DNA of 64,000 bases from positions 1 to 64,000 of IMG/VR virus record IMGVR_UViG_3300032240_002475; one strand, 5' to 3'. Below are positions 2,920-41,195 of this stretch, piece after piece (within the stretch, counting starts at the first letter, position 1; each line of letters starts with the position of its first letter). Below the pieces are notes generated by a model. The model did no database searches. It saw only the letters and a program-made list of their open reading frames with translations, and was not told the origin of the DNA. Made by a program: the position numbers and the translations under genes. The stretch is from a virus.

Positions 2920-2926
2920 AATGAGG

Positions 2927-6484: not shown

Positions 6485-6488
6485 TAAC

Positions 6489-6516
6489 AAACCCCTCTTA
6501 ATGGAGGGGTTTTTTT
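6489..6516 (+). terminator. intrinsic terminator (bidirectional)
   Basis: AAACCCCTC-TTAATG-GAGGGGTTTTTTT between convergent genes. Confidence 0.8.
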
Positions 6517-8335: not shown

Positions 8336-8757
8336 TGGAAAGAAAAATAATAACCTATAAAGATTTTAAAGAAATTGGAAAAAGCAACGAATATTTTTTA
8401 TGGAACTTTTTACAAAAAGAACAAGATAAAAATATACTATCCCTTTTTTCAATTTTTAGTGAAAAAAAGAATCATACTAACGGATTAAAAGTCTTATTAG
8501 ATAGTTTAGACATTTCTTATTACGAATCCTATGTAGATGAAAGCGTTGATTTTTTAATTGATATTGGTGTTGAAAATAAAATTTGGGCCCCACCAATTAG
8601 TGGGACAACTCATCCAAATTATTATTTTAATCCTGTTTTACTACTTTTTAAAGGATATAGTTTAAAACGCACAACATTTCAGGGTTGTTATTGTATTGAA
8701 GGTGTTGTTGATTTACTTGGAAAAGAAAATCCCGAATTACTTTCGGGACTTACCTAA
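8335..8757 (+). CDS. hypothetical protein
   Basis: Start overlaps the upstream stop codon. Confidence 0.6.
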   Translation: MERKIITYKDFKEIGKSNEYFLWNFLQKEQDKNILSLFSIFSEKKNHTNGLKVLLDSLDISYYESYVDESVDFLIDIGVENKIWAPPISGTTHPNYYFNPVLLLFKGYSLKRTTFQGCYCIEGVVDLLGKENPELLSGLT

Positions 8758-14327: not shown

Positions 14328-14981
14328 TTAAAGACCCAAAATATCGTCAATAATTTCTTGGCTTGATAAAGTTTTCCAACATCTTGGATGTTGATATGAC
14401 CAAAAAGTTTTCCAATTACCGTACCAAATAACCCCTTCTTTTCTTGGGTCAATAGTTTTGAAATCAGTACTTTGTTTTGGGAATCTACCTATATTATAGG
14501 TCTTGTAATAGTCTATATTTTCAACGTTATAGTAATCTGAATATTCTTTATTAATCTCGTCAAATTCGGTATGAATTAATGGTTTACATCCGTGGATTTT
14601 CTTATATTCCATAACCCTATCAATCCATAATAAACACTCATCTTTATCCATAGTGTCTAAATTAAATTTAACTATTTTTCCATAATCATTATATCTATGA
14701 GAGTATATTTTTTTTATTCCATAGTTTGGAACATACTTTGATATTGAAATTTCAAAGTCTCCGTAAAATTCAATTGGAACTCCAAACCAATTTCTCCATC
14801 CATTATCAGTTGGGGAAATTTTATATCCATCAATAGTTAATGACCTGTCATCACCATTTGGATATTCTCTCATTTCAACATAGTAAAGATTATCAGGTCC
14901 TACAATTTTAACGTATGGGAATGGATTAAAATGTAATATACATTTTTCTTCGTTAAGTGAAAAATACATAATTTTCAACAA
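14328..14981 (-). CDS. hypothetical protein downstream of carbamoyltransferases
   Basis: 217-aa ORF overlapping the upstream gene. Confidence 0.65.
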   Translation of the reverse strand: MLKIMYFSLNEEKCILHFNPFPYVKIVGPDNLYYVEMREYPNGDDRSLTIDGYKISPTDNGWRNWFGVPIEFYGDFEISISKYVPNYGIKKIYSHRYNDYGKIVKFNLDTMDKDECLLWIDRVMEYKKIHGCKPLIHTEFDEINKEYSDYYNVENIDYYKTYNIGRFPKQSTDFKTIDPRKEGVIWYGNWKTFWSYQHPRCWKTLSSQEIIDDILGL

Positions 14982-16542: not shown

Positions 16543-18212
16543 AAATTTTTTCTTATGATAAAATTATTGATTACTAAAATATCAAGATTTCTTTCTATAA
16601 ATGTTTTTATTGCATCTTCTGGTGATTCAACCATTGGTTCCTTTGGACCATTAAAACTTGTGTTTAATAATACAGGAACATTTGTTTGGTTGTAAAAACT
16701 TTCAATTAGTTGATAAAACTTTGGATTGTTTTCTTTTGTGACAGATTGATGTCTTGCTGAATTATCTATATGTGTAACTGCAGGTATTTTACTTCTCCAT
16801 TCTTCTTTAACTGTTGTAGTAACTAACATATACGGAGAGTATACGTCTGATTCAAAAACTTTATTTTGATGTTCAAATAAAACTGCTGGCGCAAATGGTC
16901 TATACCATTCTCTACCTTTGATGTCTGAATTTATATGACCTGTCATCCAAGAGTTAATTGGAGATGCAATAATAGAACGATTACCTAAAGCTCTTGGACC
17001 AATTTCAGAACCTCCTTGAAACCATCCAATAACTCTATTTTGTCTCAACCAATGTGTAGTATCAGCAATTAATGTATCAAAATTTTCATATTCAGTATGA
17101 AGTAATTCTGGATACTTATTTAAACTTTCAATAATTTCTGATTTGGAATATGTTTTTCCAATATAAGGATTTAATGGTTCTGTAGATTCAATGTCTACAA
17201 GTTTTTGTTGAGCGTACCAAGCACATCCTAATGGTATTCCACTATCATCACTTGGTGGAATAAAATAACAATTCTCATATAATCCTGAATTTAAGATTTT
17301 TTCGTTTGAATTGCAATTTAAAAATGAACCGCCAGCAACACAAACATTTTTTGAGTTTGTTTTATTTTTAGCAATTTTGGCTAAAATAAGAGATGCTCTT
17401 TCTTGTTCTCTTTGATAAATTCCCGCAACACAAGCTCTTGAAAAGAAATCAGACTTCCAAGATACTCTTGGGTATATTGGATTGTTTGGTATGAATATAT
17501 CATCCCCTAAATCTTTAATAAATTCAGGTGCCTCATCAACAATTTTATCATCAGCATAAGACGCTAACCCCATTAATTTACCTGCTGGCCAAGTATGTTC
17601 ATTTGGTTCGTAAATTAATTGTAAAGAACCTTGAGAATATACTGTACCTACTGATACATCTTCTCCTGTATCAATCGGCACAGGATATTTTATCCATTTT
17701 TTATAAACTTCATTATATTTTTCTTTGGTAAAATAATAAATTGAAATTCCTTCTGTCCAATCTTCATCAGGATTTAATCCCGTTCTATCAACATCATACC
17801 ACTTGGTCAATTTATTTTTATAATTCAAAATACTACCTGAAGCATCTGCAACAATTACTGCGGCATTATCGAATCCTGAACTAAAAAATGTTGAATATGC
17901 GTGAGCCAAATGATGAGGAATAAAAAATAATATCTCTCTTTTTAAATCATTATATTTTTTAAAAAATTGTTGTCCAACATTATCTTCGATTTCTGTCGTA
18001 CTATAAACATAATAATCAATATCTCTATGTGTTATGTTTAATGCATTTAAACAATAAGTTATTGATTCAAAAGGTATGAGACCTCCCTGCCAAGCTCCAT
18101 CATGTTTAAGACGAGAAAGTCTTTCTTGAGTAATACCCACAGCAACTTTTCCGTTCTCAATAATTACGGCACCTTTATCGTGTCCTACTGAAAATCCTAA
18201 TACTCTCATCAA
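16539..18212 (-). CDS. carbamoyltransferase (NodU/CmcH/TobZ family)
   Basis: GHD, ERLSRLKH, HHLAHA, GKLMGLA, EIGPRALGNRS, RPFAP, LLNTSFN. Confidence 0.93.
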   Translation of the reverse strand: MMRVLGFSVGHDKGAVIIENGKVAVGITQERLSRLKHDGAWQGGLIPFESITYCLNALNITHRDIDYYVYSTTEIEDNVGQQFFKKYNDLKREILFFIPHHLAHAYSTFFSSGFDNAAVIVADASGSILNYKNKLTKWYDVDRTGLNPDEDWTEGISIYYFTKEKYNEVYKKWIKYPVPIDTGEDVSVGTVYSQGSLQLIYEPNEHTWPAGKLMGLASYADDKIVDEAPEFIKDLGDDIFIPNNPIYPRVSWKSDFFSRACVAGIYQREQERASLILAKIAKNKTNSKNVCVAGGSFLNCNSNEKILNSGLYENCYFIPPSDDSGIPLGCAWYAQQKLVDIESTEPLNPYIGKTYSKSEIIESLNKYPELLHTEYENFDTLIADTTHWLRQNRVIGWFQGGSEIGPRALGNRSIIASPINSWMTGHINSDIKGREWYRPFAPAVLFEHQNKVFESDVYSPYMLVTTTVKEEWRSKIPAVTHIDNSARHQSVTKENNPKFYQLIESFYNQTNVPVLLNTSFNGPKEPMVESPEDAIKTFIERNLDILVINNFIIRKNL

Positions 18213-18849: not shown

Positions 18850-19338
18850 TTAATAAACAAATGATTTTTGATATTCATTCCAAACCTTTTGGACACTTGC
18901 ATTCTCACCAACTATTGTTGGTGTAAATGGTTTATGTTTCATTGGCATTTTAGCTTCTTCAGGAGTTTTACTTCCTTTCTTAAGGTTACATTTAAAACAA
19001 GAAGTAACCAAGTTTGTCCATTCATTTCCACCACCCCTTGATTTAGGAATAACGTGGTCTAAAGTCAAATTTTTATTTGACCCACAATAAACGCATTCAT
19101 AATTATCCCTCTTATAAATTCTTGGTCTACTTGCCCTTAAAGTCCTTACGTGATGTCTAATGTATTTTAGTAATCTAATAATTAAAGGGCGCACGTATGT
19201 TTTGTATCCAGTGATAATAGGTGATTCGTCTGATTTAATAACCTCAGCCTTACCTTTATCAACCAACACAAATCCCCTCCTAATACTTGTAATATTCAGG
19301 GGTGTGTAATCATAATTTAATACTAGCACAGTACTCAT
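18850..19338 (-). CDS. HNH endonuclease (McrA-like)
   Basis: VLVLN, RD..CVYCG, TLDHVIPKSRGG..WTNLV..C..CN.KK. Confidence 0.9.
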   Translation of the reverse strand: MSTVLVLNYDYTPLNITSIRRGFVLVDKGKAEVIKSDESPIITGYKTYVRPLIIRLLKYIRHHVRTLRASRPRIYKRDNYECVYCGSNKNLTLDHVIPKSRGGGNEWTNLVTSCFKCNLKKGSKTPEEAKMPMKHKPFTPTIVGENASVQKVWNEYQKSFVY

Positions 19339-19382
19339 TTAATCCAATTTTTACAAACTTAAGTGATTTAGATAATAAAAAC

Positions 19383-19412
19383 AAAAAAGGGGTCAATTTT
19401 ATCGACCCCTTC
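19383..19412 (-). terminator. intrinsic terminator after a short leader ORF
   Basis: Minus strand AAGGGGTCGA-TAAAA-TTGACCCCTTTTTT. Confidence 0.75.
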
Positions 19413-19426
19413 TATATACTCATGAT

Positions 19427-19528
19427 TTAGCAAAAGTTTATGGTTCGAGATTTTCCAATTCTCAATACATCCGAGTTCTCATATTTTTGGTTAGTTCCCA
19501 AAAGACACGTTATTTTGTCTATCATCAT
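19427..19528 (-). CDS. short ORF / possible leader peptide MMIDKITCLLGTNQKYENSDVLRIGKSRTINFC
   Basis: 33 codons between a TATTTAT motif and a terminator. Confidence 0.45.
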   Translation of the reverse strand: MMIDKITCLLGTNQKYENSDVLRIGKSRTINFC

Positions 19529-19594
19529 TACAATAAATATCCATAAAAATTTCTCAAAATCAAATTATTTTTATATCTTTGTAAAAAAACGAAT

Positions 19595-20356
19595 ATGAAA
19601 CTAAAACAATTATTTGTCGGATTTATTTCCTTATCAGTAATCCTTGCATCTTGTTCCAAAGAAGAATCTTATGTGCCAAAACAAGAGGCCGTTACAGAAA
19701 CTATGTCTGTTGCCCCGATGGCAACGACAACTGTTGCAACTTCAGTTGAAACTCCAAAGGCATATATTTTTATTGAGCCTCAATCAAAACTTAGTTTAAT
19801 TGTTAATTATTTAAAAACGACACCTCACAGTGTTCAAACAACATTAAACACACCATTCTATGGGTTTTTTACTGGGTCACCAATCAAAACAACAAATTAC
19901 ACTGACTTGTTAAATTATGTTGATATGCCGTATTGGTATAATGGAACATTACCTTCAGTTGTTCAATCAGAAATTCCACAATCGTCTGGTGGTGTTGATT
20001 CATATGGTAACACAAAAACCGCATATAACTTTTTAACTATCAAAATTAATAAAGGAACCCTTGACGAATATGCATGGGTTACAGTTTTAATTCCAACAAG
20101 TGCAATGTCAAATGACAGTAAAAAACAAGTTAAAATTGCTTACTACAGTAAGAACGAAAATGTTATAACATCAAGTGGTAATAACACTCAGACAGTTTTT
20201 AGTACTAATTCTACGTTATATTCTTATGTATTAAATTACACAGGAACACGTATTCCTAAAGGACAATATAGAGTATATAGTACTTATGGTGGTACTGAAA
20301 TGAGAGTTAAATTTAACACTACAAATGACGTTTATTTCAGAGGAGCATCGAATTAA
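19595..20356 (+). CDS. putative lipoprotein
   Basis: LASC lipobox followed by SKEE; TATCTTTG box upstream. Confidence 0.75.
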   Translation: MKLKQLFVGFISLSVILASCSKEESYVPKQEAVTETMSVAPMATTTVATSVETPKAYIFIEPQSKLSLIVNYLKTTPHSVQTTLNTPFYGFFTGSPIKTTNYTDLLNYVDMPYWYNGTLPSVVQSEIPQSSGGVDSYGNTKTAYNFLTIKINKGTLDEYAWVTVLIPTSAMSNDSKKQVKIAYYSKNENVITSSGNNTQTVFSTNSTLYSYVLNYTGTRIPKGQYRVYSTYGGTEMRVKFNTTNDVYFRGASN

Positions 20357-20390
20357 TTGACTTTGGGTATATTTATATTATTATAAGACT

Positions 20391-20489
20391 ATGGAAAACA
20401 TGAACTTAAATACTAATTTGGGCACACCGACAACTCCTAATGGAGATGGGGGCACTATGTGTTTATGTTCAGAGGCAAGTGGTTGGTAA
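20391..20489 (+). CDS. tRNA-operon leader peptide 1 (MENMNLNTNLGTPTTPNGDGGTMCLCSEASGW)
   Basis: 32-codon ORF; residues 5-22 are 16/18 N,T,P,G,D, matching the downstream tRNAs. Confidence 0.75.
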   Translation: MENMNLNTNLGTPTTPNGDGGTMCLCSEASGW

Positions 20490-20510
20490 TTAAAAATAAA
20501 GCCAAATATT

Positions 20511-20543
20511 AAAACCCTGAACATTGAAAGTTCGGGGTTTTTT
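20511..20543 (+). terminator. attenuator terminator 1
   Basis: AAAACCCTGAAC-ATTGAAA-GTTCGGGGTTTTTT; its 5' arm also pairs with ATGTTCAG at 20465-20472. Confidence 0.85.
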
Positions 20544-20563
20544 ATTTACCTTTGTTAAACAAT

Positions 20564-20637
20564 CGGAGAGTAGTACAGTCAGGTAGTATGCTTGGTTTGG
20601 GACCAAGAGGTCGTAGGTTCGAATCCTGCTTCTCCGA
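20564..20637 (+). tRNA. tRNA-Pro(TGG)
   Basis: CGGAGAG acceptor; CTTGG-TTTGGGA-CCAAG; GGTTCGAATCC. Confidence 0.93.
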
Positions 20638-20645
20638 CATAAATT

Positions 20646-20717
20646 GTCTCCTTAGCTCAGTGGTAGAGCTCTTCGCTGTTAACGAAGAAGTCCAAGGTTC
20701 GAATCCTTGAGGGGACG
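20646..20717 (+). tRNA. tRNA-Asn(GTT)
   Basis: CTTCG-CTGTTAA-CGAAG; standard D and T arms. Confidence 0.93.
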
Positions 20718-20801
20718 CGACGGGTAGGGTGGAAAAAATTTCCAATGTTGTAGTATCGTGGATGGAGAAATCCTGAAGCATAAACGGACAAAAAGAAAGA
20801 A

Positions 20802-21287
20802 ATGAAGAGAAAAGTTTTCTTATTGACGTTAGTGTTGTTCTTTATAGGTTCACCACTAAAAACAAGTGAGATGTTGGCACAAACAAAAGAAAATGTTCAA
20901 GAGAACATAACACATGAAAGTTTGTACGAACAGATAATTAAATTTGGTATTAAATTTCCTGATGTTGTGTTTGCACAAGCAGTATTAGAGTCAGGAGATT
21001 TTACCTCAAAGTTATTCCAATCAGCGAACAACTTGTTTGGTATGAAAATACCATCAGAACGTGAATCAGCGGCAATTGGTCAAACCAAAAGCGGGTATTC
21101 AAAATATGACGATTGGAATTTTAGTGTATATGATTACTTTTTGTGGCAAGATTATATGTTAAAAAAACATGGTGATTTGACAAAATCTCAGTATCTTGCA
21201 CTACTTGGTAGGATATATGCTGAAGACAAAAAATACATTAGTAGTATTAAACGAGTAATCGGAGAGCACCAAAGTATTTTGAATTAA
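20802..21287 (+). CDS. glucosaminidase (GH73/FlgJ-like) peptidoglycan hydrolase with signal peptide
   Basis: AQAVLESG, NNLFGMK, YAEDKKY motifs. Confidence 0.85.
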   Translation: MKRKVFLLTLVLFFIGSPLKTSEMLAQTKENVQENITHESLYEQIIKFGIKFPDVVFAQAVLESGDFTSKLFQSANNLFGMKIPSERESAAIGQTKSGYSKYDDWNFSVYDYFLWQDYMLKKHGDLTKSQYLALLGRIYAEDKKYISSIKRVIGEHQSILN

Positions 21288-21290
21288 AAT

Positions 21291-21364
21291 GGGATGTTAG
21301 TAGAGTTGGTTACAATGCGTCCCTGTCACGGACGAGGTCACGGGTTCGAGTCCCGTACGTCCCG
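21291..21364 (+). tRNA. tRNA-Asp(GTC)
   Basis: CGTCC-CTGTCAC-GGACG; GGTTCGAGTCC. Confidence 0.93.
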
Positions 21365-21421
21365 CAAAGCAGATAAAATGTGTAGTAACTGCAGAGAAGG
21401 TACCTCTCACTACACTCTTAA

Positions 21422-21494
21422 GCGGAAGTAGCTCATTTGGTAGAGCACCGTCCTTCCAAGTCGGGGGTGGCCAGTTCGAGCCTGGTCTTCCGCT
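21422..21494 (+). tRNA. tRNA-Gly(TCC)
   Basis: GCGGAAG/CTTCCGC acceptor; loop CTTCCAA. Confidence 0.92.
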
Positions 21495-21546
21495 CATAGG
21501 GTCTGAGGGAGTCCCTTAAACGGATAAATAACGTGTCCCTCTCATT

Positions 21547-21620
21547 GCTTCCTTAGCTCAGCAGGCCAGAGCAACTGATTTGTAATCAGTAGGTCGTCAG
21601 TTCGATTCTGACAGGAAGCT
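21547..21620 (+). tRNA. tRNA-Thr(TGT)
   Basis: ACTGA-TTTGTAA-TCAGT; GCTTCCT/AGGAAGC acceptor. Confidence 0.93.
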
Positions 21621-21634
21621 CAAAATTTTTATTT

Positions 21635-21868
21635 ATGAATATTTTTATTGCTTATTACGTTATATGCGTAATTTATTGTTTCTATCAGTTATTTAAAAAC
21701 CTTAGTAAAAGGTATAGTGATGACCCAACAGGTGGTTCGCCTGAATTAGATACTATCATGGTTATTATGATGGCTTGGGTCTTAGCACCTATTGATGTAT
21801 CTTTGACTTGGATTAGATGGTACAAAGAAGCAGAAATTGCAAGAAAAAAACACACAAAAGTTTTTTAA
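21635..21868 (+). CDS. small membrane protein
   Basis: Two hydrophobic segments. Confidence 0.6.
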   Translation: MNIFIAYYVICVIYCFYQLFKNLSKRYSDDPTGGSPELDTIMVIMMAWVLAPIDVSLTWIRWYKEAEIARKKHTKVF

Positions 21869-22216
21869 ATGGCACACCCTAATGTACATGCTAAATCATC
21901 CGCCAAAAAATTTGGTGGAAAACCAGAAGATTATATTCATCTCCATGAATGGTTAGATGAAACAAAAGGATGGTTTGGGGATTCTCTTCATAGAATGTTT
22001 AGACATCATAGTGAAGGTATTTTTGAGATGGAAAAACGTTTTGGTGTTGAATTTAAAAACAGTGATGGTAAAACAGTTTACACTCGATATGTTGGTGAAC
22101 AACATGTAAAAGAAGATTGTAATAACTATATCCCATCAGCCAAAGAATGGGTTAATAACATTACAACAAACCAAAGACCTCAATGGATGACCAGAACACT
22201 TAAACTGGAAGACTAA
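21869..22216 (+). CDS. DUF6915-like His-rich protein
   Basis: MAHP..HAKSSAKKFGG..EDY..H.W.D..K...HR..RHH.EG, EQHVKED. Confidence 0.7.
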   Translation: MAHPNVHAKSSAKKFGGKPEDYIHLHEWLDETKGWFGDSLHRMFRHHSEGIFEMEKRFGVEFKNSDGKTVYTRYVGEQHVKEDCNNYIPSAKEWVNNITTNQRPQWMTRTLKLED

Positions 22217-22227
22217 TATTTATTATC

Positions 22228-22968
22228 ATGGCAAGAAGAAAAGTAAATTCGTTTAAATTATTAACTCCTGAAGATAAGCAATATCTTAGAAGAGTTTGTA
22301 GATACTTAGGTTCACTCGGAATGCAAGACGGTAGCATTGAAATGGATATAGATACTGGTTTTGATTTTGATTTTTCTGATATTTATTGGGAAGAAGAAAC
22401 TCATTTTTCAAATAACTACAGCGCTGAAGTTCCTGATGGATTGACGCCAATCTTTAAAAAAATTGCAGATTACATCCAAGAAAATGATATATTTCAAAGT
22501 CCTAATGATGAGGAATTAAATTATGAAAGAATTGATTTTGATATTGATTGTGAAAGACAAGAATTATCTGTAAATCATTGGTGGACTTTCTATGCTAGAG
22601 GTGATGGTAATAGTGTTACTTGGGATGCCGAAGAAGATAAAGAAATGTTTGAAGAGTGGGAAAAAGATGGTGTTTTTGAAGACCTTACAATTCCTGATAA
22701 TGGAATATTAACCGTAAAATATAATGGTTCTGGTGATTCTGGATATATTGAGAGTAGTTTTGAAGAAACTTCCGACGGAGTTCCTACATCAATAGAAGAT
22801 TGGTGTTACAATCAACTTGAAAGAAATTTTGGTGGGTGGGAAATTAATGAAGGTTCTGATGGTGAATTTATATTCAATTTCCATGATACGACTATCGAAT
22901 TGAATCACACTTATAATACTGAAGAAAACGCAACTGACACTATCTACGAAGAAAGTTTTGCCGAGTAA
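22228..22968 (+). CDS. acidic hypothetical protein (DUF6878-like C-terminus)
   Basis: YNGSGDSG...GWEINEGSDG pattern. Confidence 0.6.
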   Translation: MARRKVNSFKLLTPEDKQYLRRVCRYLGSLGMQDGSIEMDIDTGFDFDFSDIYWEEETHFSNNYSAEVPDGLTPIFKKIADYIQENDIFQSPNDEELNYERIDFDIDCERQELSVNHWWTFYARGDGNSVTWDAEEDKEMFEEWEKDGVFEDLTIPDNGILTVKYNGSGDSGYIESSFEETSDGVPTSIEDWCYNQLERNFGGWEINEGSDGEFIFNFHDTTIELNHTYNTEENATDTIYEESFAE

Positions 22969-23012
22969 TCCTTTGATTTATTAATTTAAATTCCGTATCT
23001 TTGTTATACATT

Positions 23013-23086
23013 GGTTCGGTAGCTCAGTTGGATAGAGCAACAGCCTTCTAAGCTGTGGGTCAAAGGTTCGAATCCTTTCCGAATCA
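23013..23086 (+). tRNA. tRNA-Arg(TCT)
   Basis: ACAGC-CTTCTAA-GCTGT; own TATCTTTG box at 22996. Confidence 0.93.
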
Positions 23087-23198
23087 CAATATCATATCTT
23101 CAGGTACCCGTACCGCTAACGTAGGGTTAAATAAGATACAATTTCGTACTGCATTTGTGTAGGAGCGGGAAGTAGAATGCCTGTCTGATGTGATACAT

Positions 23199-23279
23199 AC
23201 CCCGTTGGTGGAATTGGTAGACACGCTGGTTTTAGGCACCAGTGCGAAAGCGTTAAGAGTTCGAGTCTCTTATGGGGTA
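23199..23279 (+). tRNA. tRNA-Leu(TAG)
   Basis: CTGGT-TTTAGGC-ACCAG; variable arm; TGGTGGAATTGGTAGACAC D-arm. Confidence 0.93.
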
Positions 23280-23293
23280 CAACAATTTAAGAT

Positions 23294-24010
23294 ATGTACG
23301 TACAAAACCCTTTAGTTCCCACCAGCCAAGAAAATTTATTTCATTTGGCGCCTATCCCTGTTTATATGAAAATATTTGGGGATGATGAACTTCATGATGA
23401 GGTTTATACTTTTGGGTTTGATAATTTGACCGAGCAACAAAAGTTAATGGGTCAAGAACTTCCAGAACAATACGATTCATTAAGACAATCAAATTACTTT
23501 GTAAATTACGACAGGAGAGAAATGTGGGTAGAACCTACAGAGTATAATCCCATTGGTAGTCGTTTTTGGACTCCTCCTAACGACTTTCTTAATACAGACA
23601 CACCAAATATCAAAACAATAAGAAACAGGGTAGAAAAGGGATATATGGAGCTTTTAGATATGTTAGGATTTCAACACAATAGAAAACCAAATATTACTGA
23701 GAGTTGGATTCAATATTATAACCCAACAGATGGCCGAGGTCATAATGCACACAATCATTGTAGATGGCAACCAAATGAAGAAACCATTTCCAATTTTTCA
23801 GGTGGTTATTATTTGTCTGATGGTGACCCTATTGCCGACCATCCTTATAGTGGTGTATTTACGTTTCATGTTAGAGGAATGTCTTATTTTATTAGACCTA
23901 AAAAAGGTATGTTAATCATTTGGCCATACGACATTGTCCATTCAGTTAAACCATTTTATGGTAAAACTCATAGATGTGTAATTAATTTTAATATCCAAGA
24001 TTCAATATGA
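23294..24010 (+). CDS. putative 2OG-Fe(II) oxygenase (TIGR02466-like)
   Basis: SW..Y, HNAHNH, SGGYY, P..G.LIIWP..HSV.P, R.VINFN. Confidence 0.8.
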   Translation: MYVQNPLVPTSQENLFHLAPIPVYMKIFGDDELHDEVYTFGFDNLTEQQKLMGQELPEQYDSLRQSNYFVNYDRREMWVEPTEYNPIGSRFWTPPNDFLNTDTPNIKTIRNRVEKGYMELLDMLGFQHNRKPNITESWIQYYNPTDGRGHNAHNHCRWQPNEETISNFSGGYYLSDGDPIADHPYSGVFTFHVRGMSYFIRPKKGMLIIWPYDIVHSVKPFYGKTHRCVINFNIQDSI

Positions 24011-24585
24011 AACAAATAGATTTAGATATTTTTGTGTTTCCAAAAATCATGTCTAATGAACTTATCGAAAGATTAATGTCCATTAGAAATAAAAGTGACT
24101 TTGATGGTAGATTAGATTTACACATTGAGGACAAAAACACTTTTTACATCTTTGATAATTTTTGGTTTTCCGAAATTGAATCACAGTATTTAAATCATTA
24201 CTTCAACACATATAATGTTGAAAGAGGTATAGGTTTGAATACCAGTGAAGATACAATAAAAGAATTAAAAAAATTCGTTGAAACAAAATGGAGAGATTTA
24301 TTCTTATTACATTATGCACCTCATGTTATGAATAAGGGTGAAAAAGATACTCACTGGGATTTTAGTGGATTAAGTATGGTTGGTTGTTTAACTGATGATT
24401 ATGAAGGTGGACAACTAATTTTTCCAAGACAGAGTGTAAGTTATAGATTAGATAAAGGAGACATTATAGTATTTCCAGGTGGATTAACTCACCCACATTA
24501 CGTTGAACCAATAACCAAAGGTTTTAGGGATGTGATTGTGGGACAAAGTCTTACAATAGAACAAAACCACAAAATTGATTATTAA
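24007..24585 (+). CDS. 2OG-Fe(II) oxygenase
   Basis: HWD, DYEGGQL.F, FPG..THPH.V..IT.G.R. Confidence 0.85.
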   Translation: MKQIDLDIFVFPKIMSNELIERLMSIRNKSDFDGRLDLHIEDKNTFYIFDNFWFSEIESQYLNHYFNTYNVERGIGLNTSEDTIKELKKFVETKWRDLFLLHYAPHVMNKGEKDTHWDFSGLSMVGCLTDDYEGGQLIFPRQSVSYRLDKGDIIVFPGGLTHPHYVEPITKGFRDVIVGQSLTIEQNHKIDY

Positions 24586-24587
24586 TT

Positions 24588-25244
24588 ATGGTAAGTAAAA
24601 AAGAAAAATTGGTTTTTTTGACCCCGCCAAAAACAGCGTCAACTTCATTTAATTATTGTTTGGATTCTTCTCCAATTAAATTTGATAATTTTGATAAAGA
24701 TTATCATAAACCAAAAACACATTTGTTTCTTTCTGAATTAGTTGAATGTTTTAATATCGAGAATATTGAAGAATATAAAATTATTCAAATTTTAAGGGAC
24801 CCATATGAAAGATTTGTATCGGCTTACCATCATTTTTTAGCGTTAATACCAATAACCTATAAAATAAGGGAAATGAAAATAAATGAATTTATTGTTTTTT
24901 ATAAAAATTGTTTGGAAAGCGATGATTTCATTTCTTGTATGTATGAAGACCCTGAATATGTTCAAGCATTAATTTCCCAAAAAATAAATTTTGGAGGAAG
25001 TAGGTATTTTATACCACAAGTAGATTGGAATGATTTAAATTTAAATGTTAATTATTTTAACTTGAATGACATATCAAAAGACGTATCAAAAATTTCTAAC
25101 TTTATCGGATTTGATTTAAAAGAATTAGGTGTTAAAAATGTAAATCCTGAAAGAAAACCTGCAAAAGATGTTTTGTCTGAGGAATCAATTAATATAATTA
25201 AAAATCTTTATAAGAAAGATTTTTTGACTTTTGAGAAACTTTAA
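24588..25244 (+). CDS. sulfotransferase family 2 protein
   Basis: PKTASTS 5'-PSB motif and RDPYERFVSAY 3'-PB motif. Confidence 0.85.
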   Translation: MVSKKEKLVFLTPPKTASTSFNYCLDSSPIKFDNFDKDYHKPKTHLFLSELVECFNIENIEEYKIIQILRDPYERFVSAYHHFLALIPITYKIREMKINEFIVFYKNCLESDDFISCMYEDPEYVQALISQKINFGGSRYFIPQVDWNDLNLNVNYFNLNDISKDVSKISNFIGFDLKELGVKNVNPERKPAKDVLSEESINIIKNLYKKDFLTFEKL

Positions 25245-25253
25245 CTATATTTG
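25223..25253 (+). promoter_or_regulatory. Bacteroidota sigmaA-type promoter for leader 2
   Basis: TTTG-N19-TATATTTG. Confidence 0.6.
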
Positions 25254-25269
25254 ATGTAATTATAATAAC

Positions 25270-25356
25270 ATGAACACTACAATGCAACATATAAGTTTTA
25301 GTCATCAACAAGAAATTTGTTGGTATGAAGCTATGCTTTGTAGTTCGGTCGTGTAA
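25270..25356 (+). CDS. tRNA-operon leader peptide 2 (MNTTMQHISFSHQQEICWYEAMLCSSVV)
   Basis: 28-codon ORF containing codons for all eight downstream tRNA specificities. Confidence 0.8.
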   Translation: MNTTMQHISFSHQQEICWYEAMLCSSVV

Positions 25357-25387
25357 TAGATAAGTAATTCCTGAAGAATTAATATAC

Positions 25388-25425
25388 AAACCCTGAACGA
25401 CAGAAATGAAGTTCGGGGTTTTTTT
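25388..25425 (+). terminator. attenuator terminator 2
   Basis: AAACCCTGAAC-N12-GTTCGGGGTTTTTTT; same stem as terminator 1; 5' arm can also pair with GTAGTTCGG at 25340-25348. Confidence 0.85.
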
Positions 25426-25463
25426 GTTATTTGAAATATTGGTTGTATCTTTGTGAAACAAAC

Positions 25464-25537
25464 GCTCCGTTGGACAAATCGGTTAAGTCGCATCCCTTTC
25501 ACGGATGAGATTACGGGTTCGAGCCCCGTACGGAGTA
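25464..25537 (+). tRNA. tRNA-Glu(TTC)
   Basis: CATCC-CTTTCAC-GGATG. Confidence 0.93.
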
Positions 25538-25604
25538 CAAATGACAAAGTTGGAAGTAAAACCTGTCCAAAGTCGGAAGTAAAAACAAGACAAAATCGGA
25601 AGTT

Positions 25605-25820
25605 ATGAAATATATTTTTAGAGGACATACTGTTTTTGAATATAAAGCAGATGATAAAAGGGATAAAATAGTTCAAGGAAAGATTCATGACGCAATTCCA
25701 GCGTTTGATTATTGTCATATGATTCCTGAGGACTATAAATTGTTAGGAGAATTTTTCAACACAGTTTATAGGCACACTCAGGGAGAAGATGTACCTTTGG
25801 AAGATATTGAAGTGTATTAA
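25605..25820 (+). CDS. hypothetical protein
   Basis: ORF between tRNAs. Confidence 0.55.
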   Translation: MKYIFRGHTVFEYKADDKRDKIVQGKIHDAIPAFDYCHMIPEDYKLLGEFFNTVYRHTQGEDVPLEDIEVY

Positions 25821-25821
25821 T

Positions 25822-25894
25822 GGTGACGTAGCTCAGTTGGTAGAGCACTTGCCTGAAGAGCAAGGTGTCGTCGGTTCAATTCCGACCGTTACCA
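25822..25894 (+). tRNA. tRNA-Phe(GAA)
   Basis: CTTGC-CTGAAGA-GCAAG. Confidence 0.92.
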
Positions 25895-25969
25895 CGGAGT
25901 CCCGAATTAACGGGAAACCCCCACTCCCATATGGCAGCCAGTCCGTTAACCTGGTGAAGTGGGGTAGGA

Positions 25970-26072
25970 TGTTAAGTAGTAGATATGTAAGCGGGCACAG
26001 GGCTCGGTAAATCGAAATGGTGATGATTCTCTTTACGAGACTACATTGTGGGTTCAAATCCCACCTTAACAA
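25970..26072 (+). ncRNA. tRNA-like RNA (acceptor + T-arm, non-canonical core)
   Basis: TGTTAAG/CTTAACA stem stacked on GTGGG-TTCAAAT-CCCAC. Confidence 0.55.
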
Positions 26073-26104
26073 CAAATAAATTAGTAGGATATAAAATAAA
26101 TGAT

Positions 26105-26338
26105 ATGAAAGCGATACTTGAATTTAATTTACCTGATGACCAACAAGATTTTGAGTTGGCAACTAAAGGAATGAAATTTTGGTCAGTCCTATGGGAATTA
26201 GACCAATCTTTAAGGGCTAAAACAAAATATGCTCCCGACAGTTTGCCTCAGGATAAGTACGACGCTTATCAAGAAATTAGAGATGAACTTCGTGAGTTAA
26301 TGTCAGATAATAATCTTAGTTTTGATATGGTTAAATAA
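26105..26338 (+). CDS. conserved phage hypothetical protein
   Basis: MKAILEFNLPDD start typical of small phage proteins. Confidence 0.65.
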   Translation: MKAILEFNLPDDQQDFELATKGMKFWSVLWELDQSLRAKTKYAPDSLPQDKYDAYQEIRDELRELMSDNNLSFDMVK

Positions 26339-26344
26339 AAAAAT

Positions 26345-26551
26345 ATGGAAAAAATAATACAAAATTTAGTTGAAGAAACGGGAAAATTATTAGTAGCTCG
26401 TTCAGAAGATATTGGTTATTATGGTGATATAAGTGATTTCGGAAATGAAGTTGGAGTTGTTGTAGGTCAACACTTCAAGAAAAAACAAGACATTGAAGAT
26501 TTCATCACAGGATTGAGACATGGTATTTCATTAGTAGACGGAACACATTAA
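26345..26551 (+). CDS. hypothetical protein
   Basis: ORF with A-rich leader. Confidence 0.6.
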   Translation: MEKIIQNLVEETGKLLVARSEDIGYYGDISDFGNEVGVVVGQHFKKKQDIEDFITGLRHGISLVDGTH

Positions 26552-26561
26552 AAATAAAAAA

Positions 26562-26777
26562 ATGAAAGTGGTAGTAAAAAAAGACAGTATAGATATTTTT
26601 CCTCACCTTTATGAGGGTACGGTATTACAGGATGTTAGAGAGAAAGGTATGAATTACGTTGGAGTTTTTACTTCTGTCTTTGGTTCCTATTATGTTGAAA
26701 TACCTAAAAAAAGGTGTAAAAAATATAAGGAGAAAAAAACATTAAATGGTCAGTTGGCCGAGTGGCTTAGGCGATAG
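26562..26777 (+). CDS. hypothetical protein (3' end overlaps tRNA-Cys)
   Basis: ORF with A-rich leader. Confidence 0.5.
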   Translation: MKVVVKKDSIDIFPHLYEGTVLQDVREKGMNYVGVFTSVFGSYYVEIPKKRCKKYKEKKTLNGQLAEWLRR

Positions 26778-26819
26778 TCTGCAAAACTATTTACACAGGT
26801 TCAAATCCTGTACTGACCT
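26748..26819 (+). tRNA. tRNA-Cys(GCA)
   Basis: ATAGT-CTGCAAA-ACTAT; U73. Confidence 0.92.
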
Positions 26820-26827
26820 CAAAGAAT

Positions 26828-26900
26828 GCGTGTGTAGCTCAATTGGTAGAGTACTAGTCTCCAAAACTAGGAGTTTCAGGTTCGAGTCCTGACATGCGTG
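26828..26900 (+). tRNA. tRNA-Trp(CCA)
   Basis: CTAGT-CTCCAAA-ACTAG. Confidence 0.92.
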
Positions 26901-27038
26901 CTAAAGGTTGATTGGGGAATGATGATGTAAAAACCTGGTAGTGGTTGGAATAAGACATCGTCGGAGTTTAAACTACCATGAGTAATGCCAATCATAAAAG
27001 GAGATGTCCACTGAACCATCTTCTCCTTTCCTTAATTT

Positions 27039-27121
27039 GGGAGTGTTGTCAATGCGGTAATTGGCACCTGACTGTAAATCAGGAGTCTTAGACTTCGGCG
27101 GTTCGAATCCGTCCACTCTCA
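27039..27121 (+). tRNA. tRNA-Tyr(GTA)
   Basis: CCTGA-CTGTAAA-TCAGG; variable arm. Confidence 0.92.
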
Positions 27122-27128
27122 CAATTTT

Positions 27129-27202
27129 GGACTTGTAGCTCACTCGGTTAGAGCGGCACACTCATAATGTGAAGGTAGTAGGTTCGATTCCTACCTGGTC
27201 CA
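27129..27202 (+). tRNA. tRNA-Ile2/Met(CAT)
   Basis: Loop CTCATAA; GGACTTG acceptor and TAGCTCA..GGTTAGAGC D-arm resemble lysidine tRNA-Ile2. Confidence 0.88.
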
Positions 27203-27205
27203 CAT

Positions 27206-27276
27206 TGTCCTTTAGTATAACGGTAGTACAGATGGTTTTGGTCCATCTAGTTGGGGTTCGAATCCCTGAGGGACAA
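27206..27276 (+). tRNA. tRNA-Gln(TTG)
   Basis: U1-A72 pair; GATGG-TTTTGGT-CCATC. Confidence 0.92.
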
Positions 27277-27376
27277 CAAAAAGTAATATATGACTAATAT
27301 TTGTACAATACATGAAACACTTTTAGATAAAGATGGAAGTTGCCCAAAATGTTTGGAAGAAAGTAATAAGTAATAT

Positions 27377-27451
27377 GGTGGATATAGCTCAGTTGGTAGA
27401 GCGCTAGATTGTGGTTCTAGTTGTCGCGGGTTCGAGCCCCGTTATTCACCC
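27377..27451 (+). tRNA. tRNA-His(GTG)
   Basis: G-1/C73; CTAGA-TTGTGGT-TCTAG. Confidence 0.93.
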
Positions 27452-27471
27452 ACATCGCCATATTTATATGT

Positions 27472-27933
27472 ATGGAAAAAAAAGTAATGTTAACTAAAGA
27501 ACAATTATTTAAAGTAATACATTTAAATGAGGCTGAAAATAAAGAAGAAACAACAGAAACTGCGGATGTTGTTGATATGATTGCAACATTACTTCACTCA
27601 AGAAGTCAAGCACATATTTTTCATTGGCAAACTAAATCACAATCTTCATTTGCCGAACATATGGCATTAGGTACGTATTATGAAGAAATTGTTGAATTAA
27701 TTGATGGTATTGTTGAAAGTTACCAAGGAAAACACGAATTAATTACAGGATACAAAACAGTAAAAATGGTTGATTATAAATCAACAGAGCAATTAATAAG
27801 TTATTTCAAAGACTTAGATAATAATATTGAAAAGAATAGAAAAGCAGTCAAAGAATCTTATATTCAAAATCAAATTGATGGAATTCAAGAATTAATATAT
27901 TCCACATTGTACAAATTAAGATTCTTAAAATAA
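27472..27933 (+). CDS. ferritin/Dps-like four-helix protein (DUF5856-like)
   Basis: H.FHWQT..FAEH.AL..YYE...D..VESYQG, TLYKLRFLK; start trimmed past tRNA-His. Confidence 0.75.
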   Translation: MEKKVMLTKEQLFKVIHLNEAENKEETTETADVVDMIATLLHSRSQAHIFHWQTKSQSSFAEHMALGTYYEEIVELIDGIVESYQGKHELITGYKTVKMVDYKSTEQLISYFKDLDNNIEKNRKAVKESYIQNQIDGIQELIYSTLYKLRFLK

Positions 27934-27954
27934 TTATTAATAAAATAGGATTTA

Positions 27955-28620
27955 ATGAAAAGAATTATCAAATTGACTGAACAAGACCTTAATAGATTGG
28001 TTAAAAGAGTTATAAAAGAACAACAAGGCCAAGGTCCTTGGTTTGGAAGAGCACCTGGTCCCGCTTCATTGGGAGTTCGTGAAGTTAAAAGACCAATCAA
28101 AATGGATGGTTCTTTATTTGCAAATGGTATTGATACTATTGATACAAATAGCCAACAATTCAAACAAGGAGTTGATGCAATTAAAAGTGCATTAATGAAA
28201 TCCAAAAATTTAGAAGTTGATGTTCAAGGAGGAGCTTCTGCAGTTGGTAGTAACTCAGGATATGACAATAAATCATTAGCAACGAGAAGAAGTTCCAATT
28301 TTATTAAAGCAATTAAACCCATTTTCCCTAATGTGACTTTTAATGTAGGTACACCTATTGTAGGAACCGCAACAACAAAGAATTCACTTGAAGCAAATGC
28401 CGAACAATTTGTAAAACTTTCATTCAATACTACAGATACTGACTTATATCAAATTCCAGCTGTTGACAACACTGCAAACGCAATGATAAGAATCAACCCT
28501 AATAAAAAGTTGACTCCTAAACCAAATGAATCTACAGTTACAAAATGTGTTAAAATACCAGCTAGTCAAGTAGCCATGTTTGAAAAAATTGCCAGTTCAT
28601 TAGGATTGATTATTACGTAA
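27955..28620 (+). CDS. probable virion protein with OmpA-C-like region
   Basis: N-terminal IIKLTEQDLNRLVKRVIKEQ motif; DN.SLATRR. Confidence 0.6.
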   Translation: MKRIIKLTEQDLNRLVKRVIKEQQGQGPWFGRAPGPASLGVREVKRPIKMDGSLFANGIDTIDTNSQQFKQGVDAIKSALMKSKNLEVDVQGGASAVGSNSGYDNKSLATRRSSNFIKAIKPIFPNVTFNVGTPIVGTATTKNSLEANAEQFVKLSFNTTDTDLYQIPAVDNTANAMIRINPNKKLTPKPNESTVTKCVKIPASQVAMFEKIASSLGLIIT

Positions 28621-28639
28621 TTTTTTAATACAATATAGT

Positions 28640-28810
28640 ATGGGACAATATAGATATACAATAGCACATTATGCTGACGGTCAATTAGTTAGACCTGAAT
28701 TTTTTACTGATTCATTAGAAGAAGCTCAAAAGATTGCTTCAATGTATGAAGGATGTGTTAGAGTTTATGATGAAGAAGGAAACATTATCATAGACAACGA
28801 TGTTCAGTAA
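28640..28810 (+). CDS. small hypothetical protein (56 aa, not in ORF track)
   Basis: MGQYRYTIAHYADGQLVRPEFF...DVQ*. Confidence 0.55.
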   Translation: MGQYRYTIAHYADGQLVRPEFFTDSLEEAQKIASMYEGCVRVYDEEGNIIIDNDVQ

Positions 28811-28912
28811 ATCTTAAAAAAAACTTAAAAAAAATTGACTATTTCACAATCAGTCTTTATATTTATAGTCTATTAAGTTAATCAAAACATTAAATTAAAA
28901 AACAAAAAAAAC

Positions 28913-29086
28913 ATGAAAAAAATCGTAGCATTATTTGCAATCGTAGCATTGGCATCTTGCGGAACAGGAGCATCAACTGAAGTAAAATCTGATTCAACTG
29001 CTGTTGTAGTAGATTCAACTAAGAAAGATTCTACAGTTGTACCTGTAGATTCTGCAAAAGCTGAAAAAGCAGCAGAAGTTAAATAA
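28913..29086 (+). CDS. small lipoprotein (57 aa, not in ORF track)
   Basis: MKKIVALFAIVALASC lipobox, A-rich leader, downstream terminator. Confidence 0.8.
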   Translation: MKKIVALFAIVALASCGTGASTEVKSDSTAVVVDSTKKDSTVVPVDSAKAEKAAEVK

Positions 29087-29108
29087 TATAACTTTCTGTA
29101 AAGAAATT

Positions 29109-29140
29109 AACCCCCTTACTTGATAGTTTGGGGGTTTTTT
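29109..29140 (+). terminator. intrinsic terminator
   Basis: AACCCCC...GGGGGTTTTTT. Confidence 0.65.
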
Positions 29141-29141
29141 A

Positions 29142-31055
29142 TTATAATAATTTTTTAATTCTTTCTATATCTTCATTCACTTTTTTAGTAAATGGTTTTT
29201 TGATTGCATCTATAACCCAAGGGTCAACAGGTCTTTTATCTGAAACTCCTCCCCATCTTTTTTGTTTCAGTTCACCAGTTTTTTTATCGTATCTATTTCC
29301 AAATATTTTGTTAAATGCCATACTTGGTAACATTCCTAATAATGCGACTGCAGGGTCTTCATAATACCTTTCTTTTTCTGGTTTTTTTCTTTCATCTTTA
29401 TCGTCTTCTTTATCGTATCTTTTTTTCTTTTCTGTTGGTTTTTTAACTTCAAATTTGTCACCAATATAAGCTCTATTCCAAGAACGGTCATAGAGCGTTA
29501 CTTCAACATCATCCTCGGTCATACCGATTATTTGTCCTTCAACAACTTTCATACCATGACTAACTAAAGGTTTACTAATTCCACAAAATTCTAAATAAAT
29601 TTTTTCATTATCTTCATTTTTGATTGTAATTTGATTTTTACATGAAGAAGAAAATCTTGAATTATCAACTATTCCTGATATTGGAGTTCTTATTTTTTTA
29701 TTTAAATCTCCTGGAATAATTATTTTTCCAAATCTATTTTGAACACCATTGCCAAAGTTTTGTTGTTCTTTTATTTGTCTACTTTCGTTATTTGGTTTAG
29801 GTTTTTCTTTAGAGCCAAACAGAAAACTACCAATTTTTTCACCAGCTTTGTAAATAAATTCATCTCTATCTTCAATATCTGATGTTTTGTATGAGCCTAA
29901 ATTCGATGGTGTTGAACCTGAACTAGCTGAACTTGCTCCAGCGCATTTTAAAGTACCATCATCATTTAAAAATTCTTTAATATTATGGCCAGTTTCCACT
30001 CCAATATGTACGTGGTCAGAATCACTTCCAGGAAAATCTGCAATATAACCAATTAATTGGCCACATTGAATTTTTGAACCCTGATTTATTGGCGAATCTT
30101 TTAAATGGGTATAATAAACACTTGGTAAACCACCATCACTTTTTACGGTAAAACTTTGTCCAAATAATCTTTTACCGTCTTTTTCAACAATTTTTTCACC
30201 GTAATCACTAAATGTTTGGGCAACACCATCAGCAATTGCATATACAGGAGTTCCAACTTCTCCCATTATGTCCCACGCATTATTACTTTGCCATCCTGAT
30301 TGACCAGCGTGTGCTCCATCTGCGGGTATAACTACGTCGGCACCTCCAAAAAGTTGAACGCTGTTTTCTAATGCTTCATTCATTAAGAATTTTTTAAATT
30401 CTTTTTTTGTTTGAATCATTTCACTTAATCCGCTAGTACTTTTTAAATTTTGAATAATTTGACCAAACCCTGTTTTACCTGTTGATGTTGTCGGTTGATT
30501 TTTTCCTGTTGCCGCTGCGTAGGCTTTTTCGGCATCACCTGAATTATCAATAGGTTCTGATGATGGCGTTGTTGGAGTTGCACCTGATAGAGTAATACCA
30601 TCTTTATTAATGTAATCCATTGGATTTAATAACTGACCGTTCTTTCTAAGTGTAAAATGTAAATGTCTGCCATCGCTTATACCATGACCTAAGTCATTCG
30701 CTCCACCACCACTAATACCTATGACATCTCCTTGTTTAACTTGTTGACCTTGAGTAACATTAATTTTTTGCATGTGACAAAATCCTGTTCTGAATCCATC
30801 CGCGTGGTCAATAACAATTGTACCACCACATGGGGGTTCATCAGCGGCTACTTTGGCAACAACTCCATCTGCGGGAGCTTTAACCTCTGCAGCATCTGCA
30901 GCTAAATCAACTCCGTTATGACTAGAGCTAAACCCTTGATTAAGTGATATATTATCCAAAGGGCCATTCAACGCTGACTCATGTAAACTCAACAAAGATT
31001 TTTTTGAGTTACTAATTTCTTCGTAGATTTCAAGAATCTTTTTTTCAATATTCAT
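29142..31055 (-). CDS. multi-domain M23 peptidase (probable virion-associated)
   Basis: HNGVD...HLHF domain, second H...D / HVH domain, third degenerate M23-like domain. Confidence 0.85.
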   Translation of the reverse strand: MNIEKKILEIYEEISNSKKSLLSLHESALNGPLDNISLNQGFSSSHNGVDLAADAAEVKAPADGVVAKVAADEPPCGGTIVIDHADGFRTGFCHMQKINVTQGQQVKQGDVIGISGGGANDLGHGISDGRHLHFTLRKNGQLLNPMDYINKDGITLSGATPTTPSSEPIDNSGDAEKAYAAATGKNQPTTSTGKTGFGQIIQNLKSTSGLSEMIQTKKEFKKFLMNEALENSVQLFGGADVVIPADGAHAGQSGWQSNNAWDIMGEVGTPVYAIADGVAQTFSDYGEKIVEKDGKRLFGQSFTVKSDGGLPSVYYTHLKDSPINQGSKIQCGQLIGYIADFPGSDSDHVHIGVETGHNIKEFLNDDGTLKCAGASSASSGSTPSNLGSYKTSDIEDRDEFIYKAGEKIGSFLFGSKEKPKPNNESRQIKEQQNFGNGVQNRFGKIIIPGDLNKKIRTPISGIVDNSRFSSSCKNQITIKNEDNEKIYLEFCGISKPLVSHGMKVVEGQIIGMTEDDVEVTLYDRSWNRAYIGDKFEVKKPTEKKKRYDKEDDKDERKKPEKERYYEDPAVALLGMLPSMAFNKIFGNRYDKKTGELKQKRWGGVSDKRPVDPWVIDAIKKPFTKKVNEDIERIKKLL

Positions 31056-41142: not shown

Positions 41143-41195
41143 ATGTTTCTGTTTTTTACAAAGTAATAACAAATTTTGTACATATCCAAATAATT

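Follow-up and report, generated by a model that had tools for sequence, protein, structure and literature searches.

Candidate leader-peptide attenuators with array-matched codons ahead of phage tRNA gene arrays

We analyzed a 64,000-nucleotide stretch of phage DNA (positions 1 to 64,000 of IMG/VR virus record IMGVR_UViG_3300032240_002475, hereafter the window), which is the first 64 kb of a genome of 122,290 bp and 32% G+C. The genome encodes portal, terminase and major-capsid genes of the T4 type, and even the closest cultured phages in a portal-protein comparison are only distantly related (Microcystis phage Mel-JY01, 35.5% over 83%; Flavobacterium phage immuto, 39.9% over 62%). It carries 17 tRNA genes, 15 of them on the plus strand in three blocks. 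Two of these blocks are preceded by a unit made of a promoter-like box, a short open reading frame (ORF) and an intrinsic terminator, which we describe here as a candidate leader-peptide attenuator of the tRNA genes that follow.

tRNA arrays and the units that precede them

The unit that a first-pass annotation of the window had singled out (unit B, plus strand) opens with a promoter-like box, P1 (25223-25253), recognized in the sequence and by a box scan. As that annotation proposed, it is of the TTTG-N19 form, with TTTG at 25223-25226 and TATATTTG at 25246-25253, and it overlaps the stop codon of an upstream sulfotransferase-like gene (24588-25244; Pfam). The leader ORF (25270-25356) has 28 codons; its translation yields the 28-residue peptide expected from the earlier annotation, its 16 core codons read as claimed, and the codons matched to the downstream tRNA genes are concentrated in a core at codons 6-20 (25285-25329). 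Region 1 of the unit (25268-25287), a putative anti-antiterminator, is predicted to pair with 25333-25354 in the untranslated RNA. Region 2, the antiterminator strand (25337-25348; TTTGT.AGTTCGG), is a partial copy of the terminator 3' arm and ends 6 nt before the stop codon, the same hexamer occupying the same place in relatives. Regions 3 and 4 form the intrinsic terminator (25388-25425, from sequence and folding), in which AAACCCTGAAC (25388-25398) is paired with GTTCGGGGTTT (25411-25421) at -17.6 kcal/mol, a value equaled by none of 200 shuffles, and which ends in seven T at 25419-25425.

Downstream of the terminator lies array B (25464-27451, plus strand), with genes for tRNA-Glu(TTC), Phe(GAA), Cys(GCA), Trp(CCA), Tyr(GTA), a CAT tRNA, Gln(TTG) and His(GTG). 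All eight were called by ARAGORN and again by Rfam model RF00005 at 44-73 bits. The description of this array as an eight-tRNA operon holds for the tRNAs, with the qualification that five small ORFs and two structured non-tRNA segments are interspersed among them. A terminator scan and a box scan of the array interior returned no further terminator or promoter box. The CAT tRNA (27129-27203) has a paired 1-72 end and is thus not an initiator; it is either Met or Ile2. A second CAT tRNA gene, tRNA-Met(CAT), lies on the minus strand (2796-2870) and shares the acceptor stem of the first, with a different anticodon stem. Directly upstream of it, about 150 nt of GC-rich, apparently structured sequence (2880-3040, minus strand) contained on inspection neither a leader ORF nor a terminator.

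The second unit of the genome (unit A, plus strand) has the same order of parts: promoter-like box, ORF, terminator, a TACCTTTG box (20547-20554) and tRNA-Pro. Its promoter-like -7 box, TATATTTA (20368-20375), stands 15 nt upstream of the leader ATG, and no clear -33 element was found in its promoter region. The leader ORF (20391-20489) has 32 codons, and 18 of the 31 after the start specify Asn, Thr, Gly, Pro or Asp. These are precisely the amino acids served by the five tRNAs of array A (20564-21621, plus strand; ARAGORN and Rfam), which encodes tRNA-Pro(TGG), Asn(GTT), Asp(GTC), Gly(TCC) and Thr(TGT), with one ORF between tRNA-Asn and tRNA-Asp. Near the leader end, the antiterminator strand ATGTTCAG.GG (20465-20475) is predicted to pair with 20513-20523, within a terminator (20511-20543; terminator scan and motif scan) nearly identical to that of unit B. 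An alignment of unit A with unit B gives a column identity of 73%, and the terminator motif has two sites in the 122 kb, each just before a tRNA array. The third plus-strand array consists of tRNA-Arg(TCT) and tRNA-Leu(TAG) (23013-23280; ARAGORN).

Codon content of leaders and arrays in related phages

As a null set for the codon match we took every ATG ORF of 20-40 codons from any of the six frames of the window's genome, 494 in total. Leader B matched array B at 14 of 27 codons (null mean 0.30, P = 0.03 over the whole ORF) and leader A matched array A at 18 of 31 (null mean 0.19, P = 0.004). Scored on the other array, the leaders matched at 7/31 (leader A on array B) and 3/27 (leader B on array A). 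The earlier claim that leader B holds a codon for every tRNA of its array stands for 8 of 8, a coverage equaled by 3 of the 494 null ORFs. The reading of ATA by the CAT tRNA, also part of that claim, would assume lysidine.

Searching IMG/VR for exact copies of the terminator motif gave 32 loci. A same-strand tRNA array lies downstream in 30 of them, and 28 also have an upstream small ORF that ends 20-35 nt before the hairpin, giving 20 distinct leader peptides. At two loci of identical sequence (L012 and L020) the hairpin follows a 161-residue ORF, and at two others (L013 and L032) the motif occurs without a tRNA array. After fetching 14 longer stretches, we curated 27 units from 16 phage genomes by coordinates; the leader ORF is open in all 27. 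Type A leaders head Pro/Asn/Asp/Gly/Thr(/Ala) arrays, type B leaders head Glu/Val/Phe/Lys/Cys/Trp/Tyr/Met/Gln/Arg(ACG)/His/Ser arrays and type C leaders head Leu(TAA)/Arg(TCT)/Leu(TAG) arrays; types D and G head large mixed arrays, and types E and F occur in locus L038. A blastn search of 24500-27500 against the phage collection found similarity in the tRNA genes only and no homologous leader. Two loci recovered in a protein-based search with the window's upstream sulfotransferase-like gene as query were distant (28% identity) and were not used.

The whole-ORF match of leaders to their own arrays exceeded the null for types A, B, C and E. In L036, for example, a type-C leader (8339-8407) carries TTA, CTN or AGA at 12 of 21 codons before Leu(TAA), Arg(TCT) and Leu(TAG) tRNA genes, a score reached by none of the 494 null ORFs. 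In genomes with at least two units, the array downstream gave the highest z for 21 of 22 leaders (mean z +2.76 for the own array vs. -1.30 for the others). When arrays were permuted among genomes within a type, the match of type B (n = 11) fell from the 197 observed to 182.5 (standard deviation 4.1; P = 0.0003, or 0.0007 without the near-duplicate L042) and that of type A (n = 9) was also lower (P = 0.041, or 0.048 without L042), though the units share descent and these P-values overstate their independence. The co-variation of leader codons with the anticodon set that the first-pass annotation anticipated was thus borne out both by the own-array scores and by permutation within types.

Single replacements follow the same pattern. 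Leader B of the window has Gln, Ser and His where its relatives show Arg(CGT), Val and Lys, and the window has no Arg(ACG), Val or Lys tRNAs; its leader lacks the Lys, core Val and CGN codons that the relatives carry. L037 has the sole type-B array without tRNA-Glu and the sole type-B leader without a Glu codon. In L040, array B lacks Phe and the leader carries Tyr in its place, and leader A reads GGTG vs. GDAG in the others, its array having neither Asp nor Ala tRNAs. We also considered whether R/L codons in type-A leaders track fusion with a Leu/Arg array; the window is a counter-example and the idea was dropped.

The small ORFs could instead encode functional micropeptides, or their transcripts could act as small RNAs, with adjacency to the arrays reflecting synteny and the composition match arising as a by-product. 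A C-terminal SEASGW motif in some type-A leaders and an M-K/R/N-T start in many leaders would fit such a role. Nevertheless, non-synonymous differences among homologous leaders far exceed synonymous ones (538 vs. 160 and 665 vs. 143; third positions are slightly overrepresented), so the peptide as such is not conserved; the C-terminal stretch that is conserved coincides with RNA pairing partners, residues co-change with the tRNA set, and leaders unrelated in sequence in a cultured phage obey the same rule. We regard a micropeptide or small RNA as an improbable explanation of the units.

That cultured phage is Cellulophaga phage phi4:1 (NC_021788.1; locus L049), which carries two units, at about 87,065-87,190 and 88,025-88,165 of the record, that show no sequence relationship to those of the window in promoter, leader or hairpin. 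Its first leader (locus positions 6460-6528) contains 11 consecutive matched codons, QRLHLQELEQP, which serve Pro, Glu, Gln, His, Leu, Leu and Arg, exactly the seven tRNAs encoded before the next unit. In the second leader (7420-7503, GTG start), 22 of 26 codons are read by the next 11 tRNAs, a score that no null ORF equals (0/494), and just 3 of 26 match the first block. Near the end of the ORF, each unit repeats the 3' arm of its own hairpin. The annotated hypothetical protein gp075 (7384-7503) begins inside a promoter box, and judging from the sequence its annotation most likely represents the 27-codon leader peptide that would start at GTG 7420.

These comparisons also bear on the simplest alternative, a chance ORF in an intergenic region beside an ordinary terminator. 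For unit B taken alone the numbers are indeed modest (P = 0.03 for the whole ORF, and an antiterminator core that 44% of shuffles reach). The genome has a second unit, however, 28 of 32 related loci combine a leader with an array, and the own-array scores, the results for phi4:1 and the confinement of matched codons to one part of the leader (described below) all agree. After the comparative data, a chance ORF seems very unlikely.

Pairing of the leader end with the terminator, and promoter-like boxes

A copy of 6-11 nt of the terminator 3' arm, sufficient for a duplex of at least 6 bp, was found at or just past the leader end in 26 of 29 units. The hexamer GTTCAG or GTTCGG at the leader end occurs in all three reading frames, and after the stop codon in type C and some type B units. 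It changes together with the hairpin (CCCTGAAC with GTTCAG, CCCCGAAC with GTTCGG), and the unrelated hairpins of unit E of L038 and of phi4:1 each have a 3'-arm copy of their own. Since the copy is independent of frame and follows the hairpin sequence, we interpret it as an RNA element and not a peptide motif. The pairing proposed in the first-pass annotation for unit B, between GTAGTTCGG (25340-25348) and CTGAACGAC (25393-25401), can form at 8 of 9 positions, one of them a G-U.

Folding of the terminator against the antiterminator upheld the terminator and the antiterminator of unit A. When the 3' arm is left out of unit A, the antiterminator strand (20465-20475) pairs with 20513-20523 at -15.4 kcal/mol (z -3.2; 1 of 200 shuffles as good). 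The antiterminator of unit B proved weak on its own, as detailed below. The untranslated leader B folds into a hairpin (25262-25356) of -25.6 kcal/mol (z -3.8; 0 of 200 shuffles) in which the start-codon region pairs with the antiterminator strand. Such pairing of region 1 with region 2 is not general: naked RNA favors the antiterminator in 19 of 27 units.

To model a stalled ribosome, we barred from pairing all RNA that lies 5' of the A site plus 13 nt. With the A site within roughly the first 18-25 codons, all 27 units hold at least 5 nt of the terminator 5' arm. At the last codons the hold is lost in 22 of the 27; in three it never drops below 5 nt, and in two it falls and then rises at the stop. 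Matched codons concentrate in the stall-competent part of the leader (404/609 pooled, vs. 53/186 in the tails), and their share is higher there in 26 of 27 units. For the units of the window, the competent part and the tail score 17/22 vs. 1/9 in leader A and 13/21 vs. 1/6 in leader B.

Direct binding of uncharged tRNA by a T-box-like RNA, with no need for translation, would also suit the location ahead of translation-related genes and the choice between terminator and antiterminator. It has, however, to contend with the many different codons involved and with an ORF that is open in every curated unit. A cmscan of 19000-30000 against Rfam, with E up to 1, returned only tRNA and sub-threshold chance matches: no T-box, no leader family and no non-tRNA family at gathering score. 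We find a T-box-like switch barely credible here.

Metatranscriptome contigs of relatives (at least 90% alike) cover parts of leader B (X1, 25281-25425; X2, 25236-25398; X3, 25307-25400). Four sequencing runs were identified (shares 0.05-0.07); the contigs are blind to starts, ends and strand, and such libraries may contain DNA, so we draw no conclusion from them.

Box pairs of the form TTTG-N17-21-TAnnTTTG, which we take to be a Bacteroidota promoter consensus, number just 14 on both strands of the 122-kb genome, three of them at 22972, 25223 and 25423. In type-B relatives, a box of the P1 type precedes the leader ATG by 15-17 nt, and a ATATTTAT box also stands upstream of type-A leaders in relatives. 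A scan for the sigma-70 consensus was uninformative (43 sites vs. 43.9 expected). The first-pass annotation had raised as a caveat a second box between terminator and tRNA-Glu, and the caveat stands: P2 (25423-25453, plus strand; TTTG, 19 nt, TATCTTTG) is present 10 nt upstream of tRNA-Glu. Inside P2, at 25427-25442, is a 16-nt motif (consensus TTCTTTGANATATTGG) that occurs once in the genome with one mismatch and at one further site with two (99731, minus strand). Many relatives have this motif in the same interval, on one side or the other of the TAnnTTTG box that separates their terminator from the first tRNA; it might serve as an operator, as a promoter of a second class or as a processing signal.

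Several observations weigh against attenuation. Each of the three plus-strand arrays has a TAnnTTTG box 9-10 nt ahead of its first tRNA (20547, 22996 and 25446), and the third array (Arg and Leu, at 23013) has such a box alone, with no leader. Array expression may therefore be largely independent of the switch, through P2. In unit B, the antiterminator folded without the 3' arm is an interrupted 11-bp helix with 25393-25404 (-13.1 kcal/mol, z -1.6; 12 of 200 shuffles as good), the naked nascent RNA does not hold the terminator 5' arm at all, and a single 6-bp match is not significant. Of the 27 leader-B codons, 13 have no counterpart in the array (N, T, T, ATA, AGT twice, ATT and the tail). 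The one exception among the 22 own-array comparisons, leader C of L014, matches array A better than its own. L043 retains codons for Phe and Met although both tRNAs are missing, and L035, L037 and L040 retain CGT without Arg(ACG). Matched codons are not enriched in leaders that precede large mixed arrays (L044, 9/36, P = 0.48; L048, 27/33, P = 0.37; L038 F, P = 0.27).

The boxes close to the tRNA genes are central to another explanation, in which the hairpin is an insulator that stops transcription from upstream, P2 drives the array and the small ORF has no effect on tRNA expression. Terminators of the same family do follow long ORFs without a leader (L012/L020; L037 at 5082) and stand before Ile/Ser tRNAs in L035, L036, L039 and L042. 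Insulation leaves unexplained, however, why an ORF of only ~30 codons should have a dedicated promoter, why its codons track the content of the array, why its end bears a 3'-arm copy that is independent of frame and why the matched codons are confined to the stall-competent part. Furthermore, in three relatives the first tRNA begins only 6-14 nt after the T run, which leaves no space for a second promoter; read-through must therefore matter there. We consider an insulating terminator with its own promoter unlikely to account for the units. In the window phage, the P2 and 20547-20554 boxes lie between terminator and first tRNA, so the switch may only add to a basal level of expression.

Taking these points together, we estimate at roughly 0.7 the probability that the units act as leader-peptide (ribosome-mediated) transcription attenuators, each in front of a phage tRNA array. 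The original proposal of an attenuator whose codons mirror the array is supported by the co-variation of leaders with arrays, by the conserved, frame-independent antiterminator element and by the presence of the same layout, with unrelated sequence, in phi4:1.

Other features of the region stand apart from this argument. The leaderless terminators before Ile(GAT)/Ser(GCT) tRNAs (L035 11374, L036 13307, L039 15282 and L042 10493) are strong ones of the TCCCTCT..AGGGGGA type, lie directly before these genes and follow a DUF5856-like ORF of ~150 residues; the window has a homologous DUF5856-like ORF (27421-27933) and lacks the Ile(GAT)/Ser(GCT) tRNAs. Within array B, a tandem 23-nt direct repeat (25545-25590) follows just after tRNA-Glu and has an inverted partner ~1.1 kb downstream (26663-26683), inside a small ORF. 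The structured non-tRNA segment after tRNA-Phe (25896-26075) ends in a T-arm-like and an acceptor-like stretch, metatranscriptome contigs cover it at high depth, and the distant relatives L046 (5241-5291) and L047 (6095-6139) have a similar hairpin after tRNA-Phe. ARAGORN, run with introns and a lowered threshold, proposed in this segment a weak tRNA-Arg(ACG)-like gene (~25952-26073) with a 52-nt insert; its D arm is poor and it was not used. The ~135-nt spacer between tRNA-Trp and tRNA-Tyr (26902-27038) is conserved in L014 (about 14330-14529, minus strand of the locus), where an identical translated string appears, and had no match in Rfam. Elsewhere in the window, the minus strand (14953-18212 and 39127-41172) encodes two carbamoyltransferase paralogues side by side as well as a ClpB/ClpC-like double-AAA ATPase.

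A candidate mechanism and its relation to known systems

In the mechanism that we propose, the transcript from P1 would carry a short ORF written mostly in codons of the tRNAs encoded just downstream. During fast decoding, the ribosome would reach the last 6-10 codons and the stop and cover the copy of the 3' arm; the terminator would then form and transcription would end. Were one of the tRNAs scarce or uncharged, the ribosome would stall upstream and the free copy would pair with the emerging 5' arm, allowing read-through into the tRNA genes. The new phage tRNAs would relieve the stall and close a negative feedback loop, one for each array. In unit B, pairing of the leader start with the antiterminator strand would sequester that strand when the leader is not translated, so termination would also be the outcome without translation, as in the trp operon. 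We infer that the leaders are translated, that transcription and translation are coupled and that the switch responds to tRNA supply, and likewise that expression is shared in some proportion between the switch and P2.

Leader-peptide attenuators with more than one input are established in enterobacteria (ilvGMEDA for Ile/Leu/Val and thr for Thr/Ile), alongside those of trp, his, leu and pheA. The phage units have in common with them a short leader with regulatory codons (its translation being predicted here), an intrinsic terminator and a putative antiterminator, clear in the folds of unit A and weak in those of unit B, that would share the terminator 5' arm and be covered by a ribosome at the leader end; unit B additionally resembles them in its 1:2 pairing and in its predicted termination without translation. 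The units differ in what they control. Classical attenuators precede enzymes of amino acid biosynthesis or aminoacylation, whereas here tRNA genes and small ORFs lie downstream, so that the output would replenish the very molecule being sensed. Whereas enterobacterial leaders contain runs for one or three amino acids, the phage leaders list up to 8-11 tRNA species with single or few codons each; they are also phage-borne, occur in several copies, one per array, and match no Rfam leader family.

The pheST operon of E. coli, controlled through the pheM leader, shows that leader-peptide attenuation can govern an aminoacyl-tRNA synthetase. Like the phage units under the proposed mechanism, it places a component of the translation apparatus under a leader that senses the cognate charged tRNA pool; it differs in having a synthetase as its target, in sensing one amino acid and in being cellular. 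T-box riboswitches, which also precede translation-related genes, respond to the state of a tRNA by forming either a terminator or an antiterminator, as the phage units would, but bind one tRNA directly and without a ribosome, whereas the phage units have an ORF with many codon types. The trn operon (L-array) of Anabaena sp. PCC 7120 is described as silent by default and inducible when translation is impaired (PMC8421152, PMC10272220), under control of the protein repressor TrcR (PMC10272220). The L-array is a supernumerary tRNA array that is off by default and induced by impaired translation, as the phage arrays would be, and unlike them it is governed by a repressor instead of a leader peptide, is cellular and plasmid-borne and forms one operon, not codon-sorted blocks. 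Our literature search found no account of leader-peptide attenuation of tRNA genes, although a description may exist. Classical leader-peptide attenuation is known, and what appears to be new, as far as we found described, is its direction at tRNA genes, the many-codon roster and its modular use in phages.

More tentatively, the units may represent modular "roster" attenuators of Bacteroidota-type phages, one for each codon-sorted block, that together would form a multiplexed sensor of decoding capacity and a self-tuning counter-defense; we see this as a possibility short of an expectation. Each block would then be switched on only once one of its own tRNAs has been depleted, as host anticodon nucleases or a phage-induced shut-off, for instance, might cause. 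The regulation of phage tRNA genes and their sorting into blocks are largely unexplained, and a switch that reads the codons of its own block would explain the sorting. The same design is present in the cultured phage phi4:1 and is therefore directly testable. If true, the mechanism would provide a natural and compact sensor of decoding speed at individual codons. It would also mean that phages supply tRNAs on demand and that classical attenuation reaches beyond amino acid supply to the supply of tRNAs, each switch having as many as 8-11 inputs.

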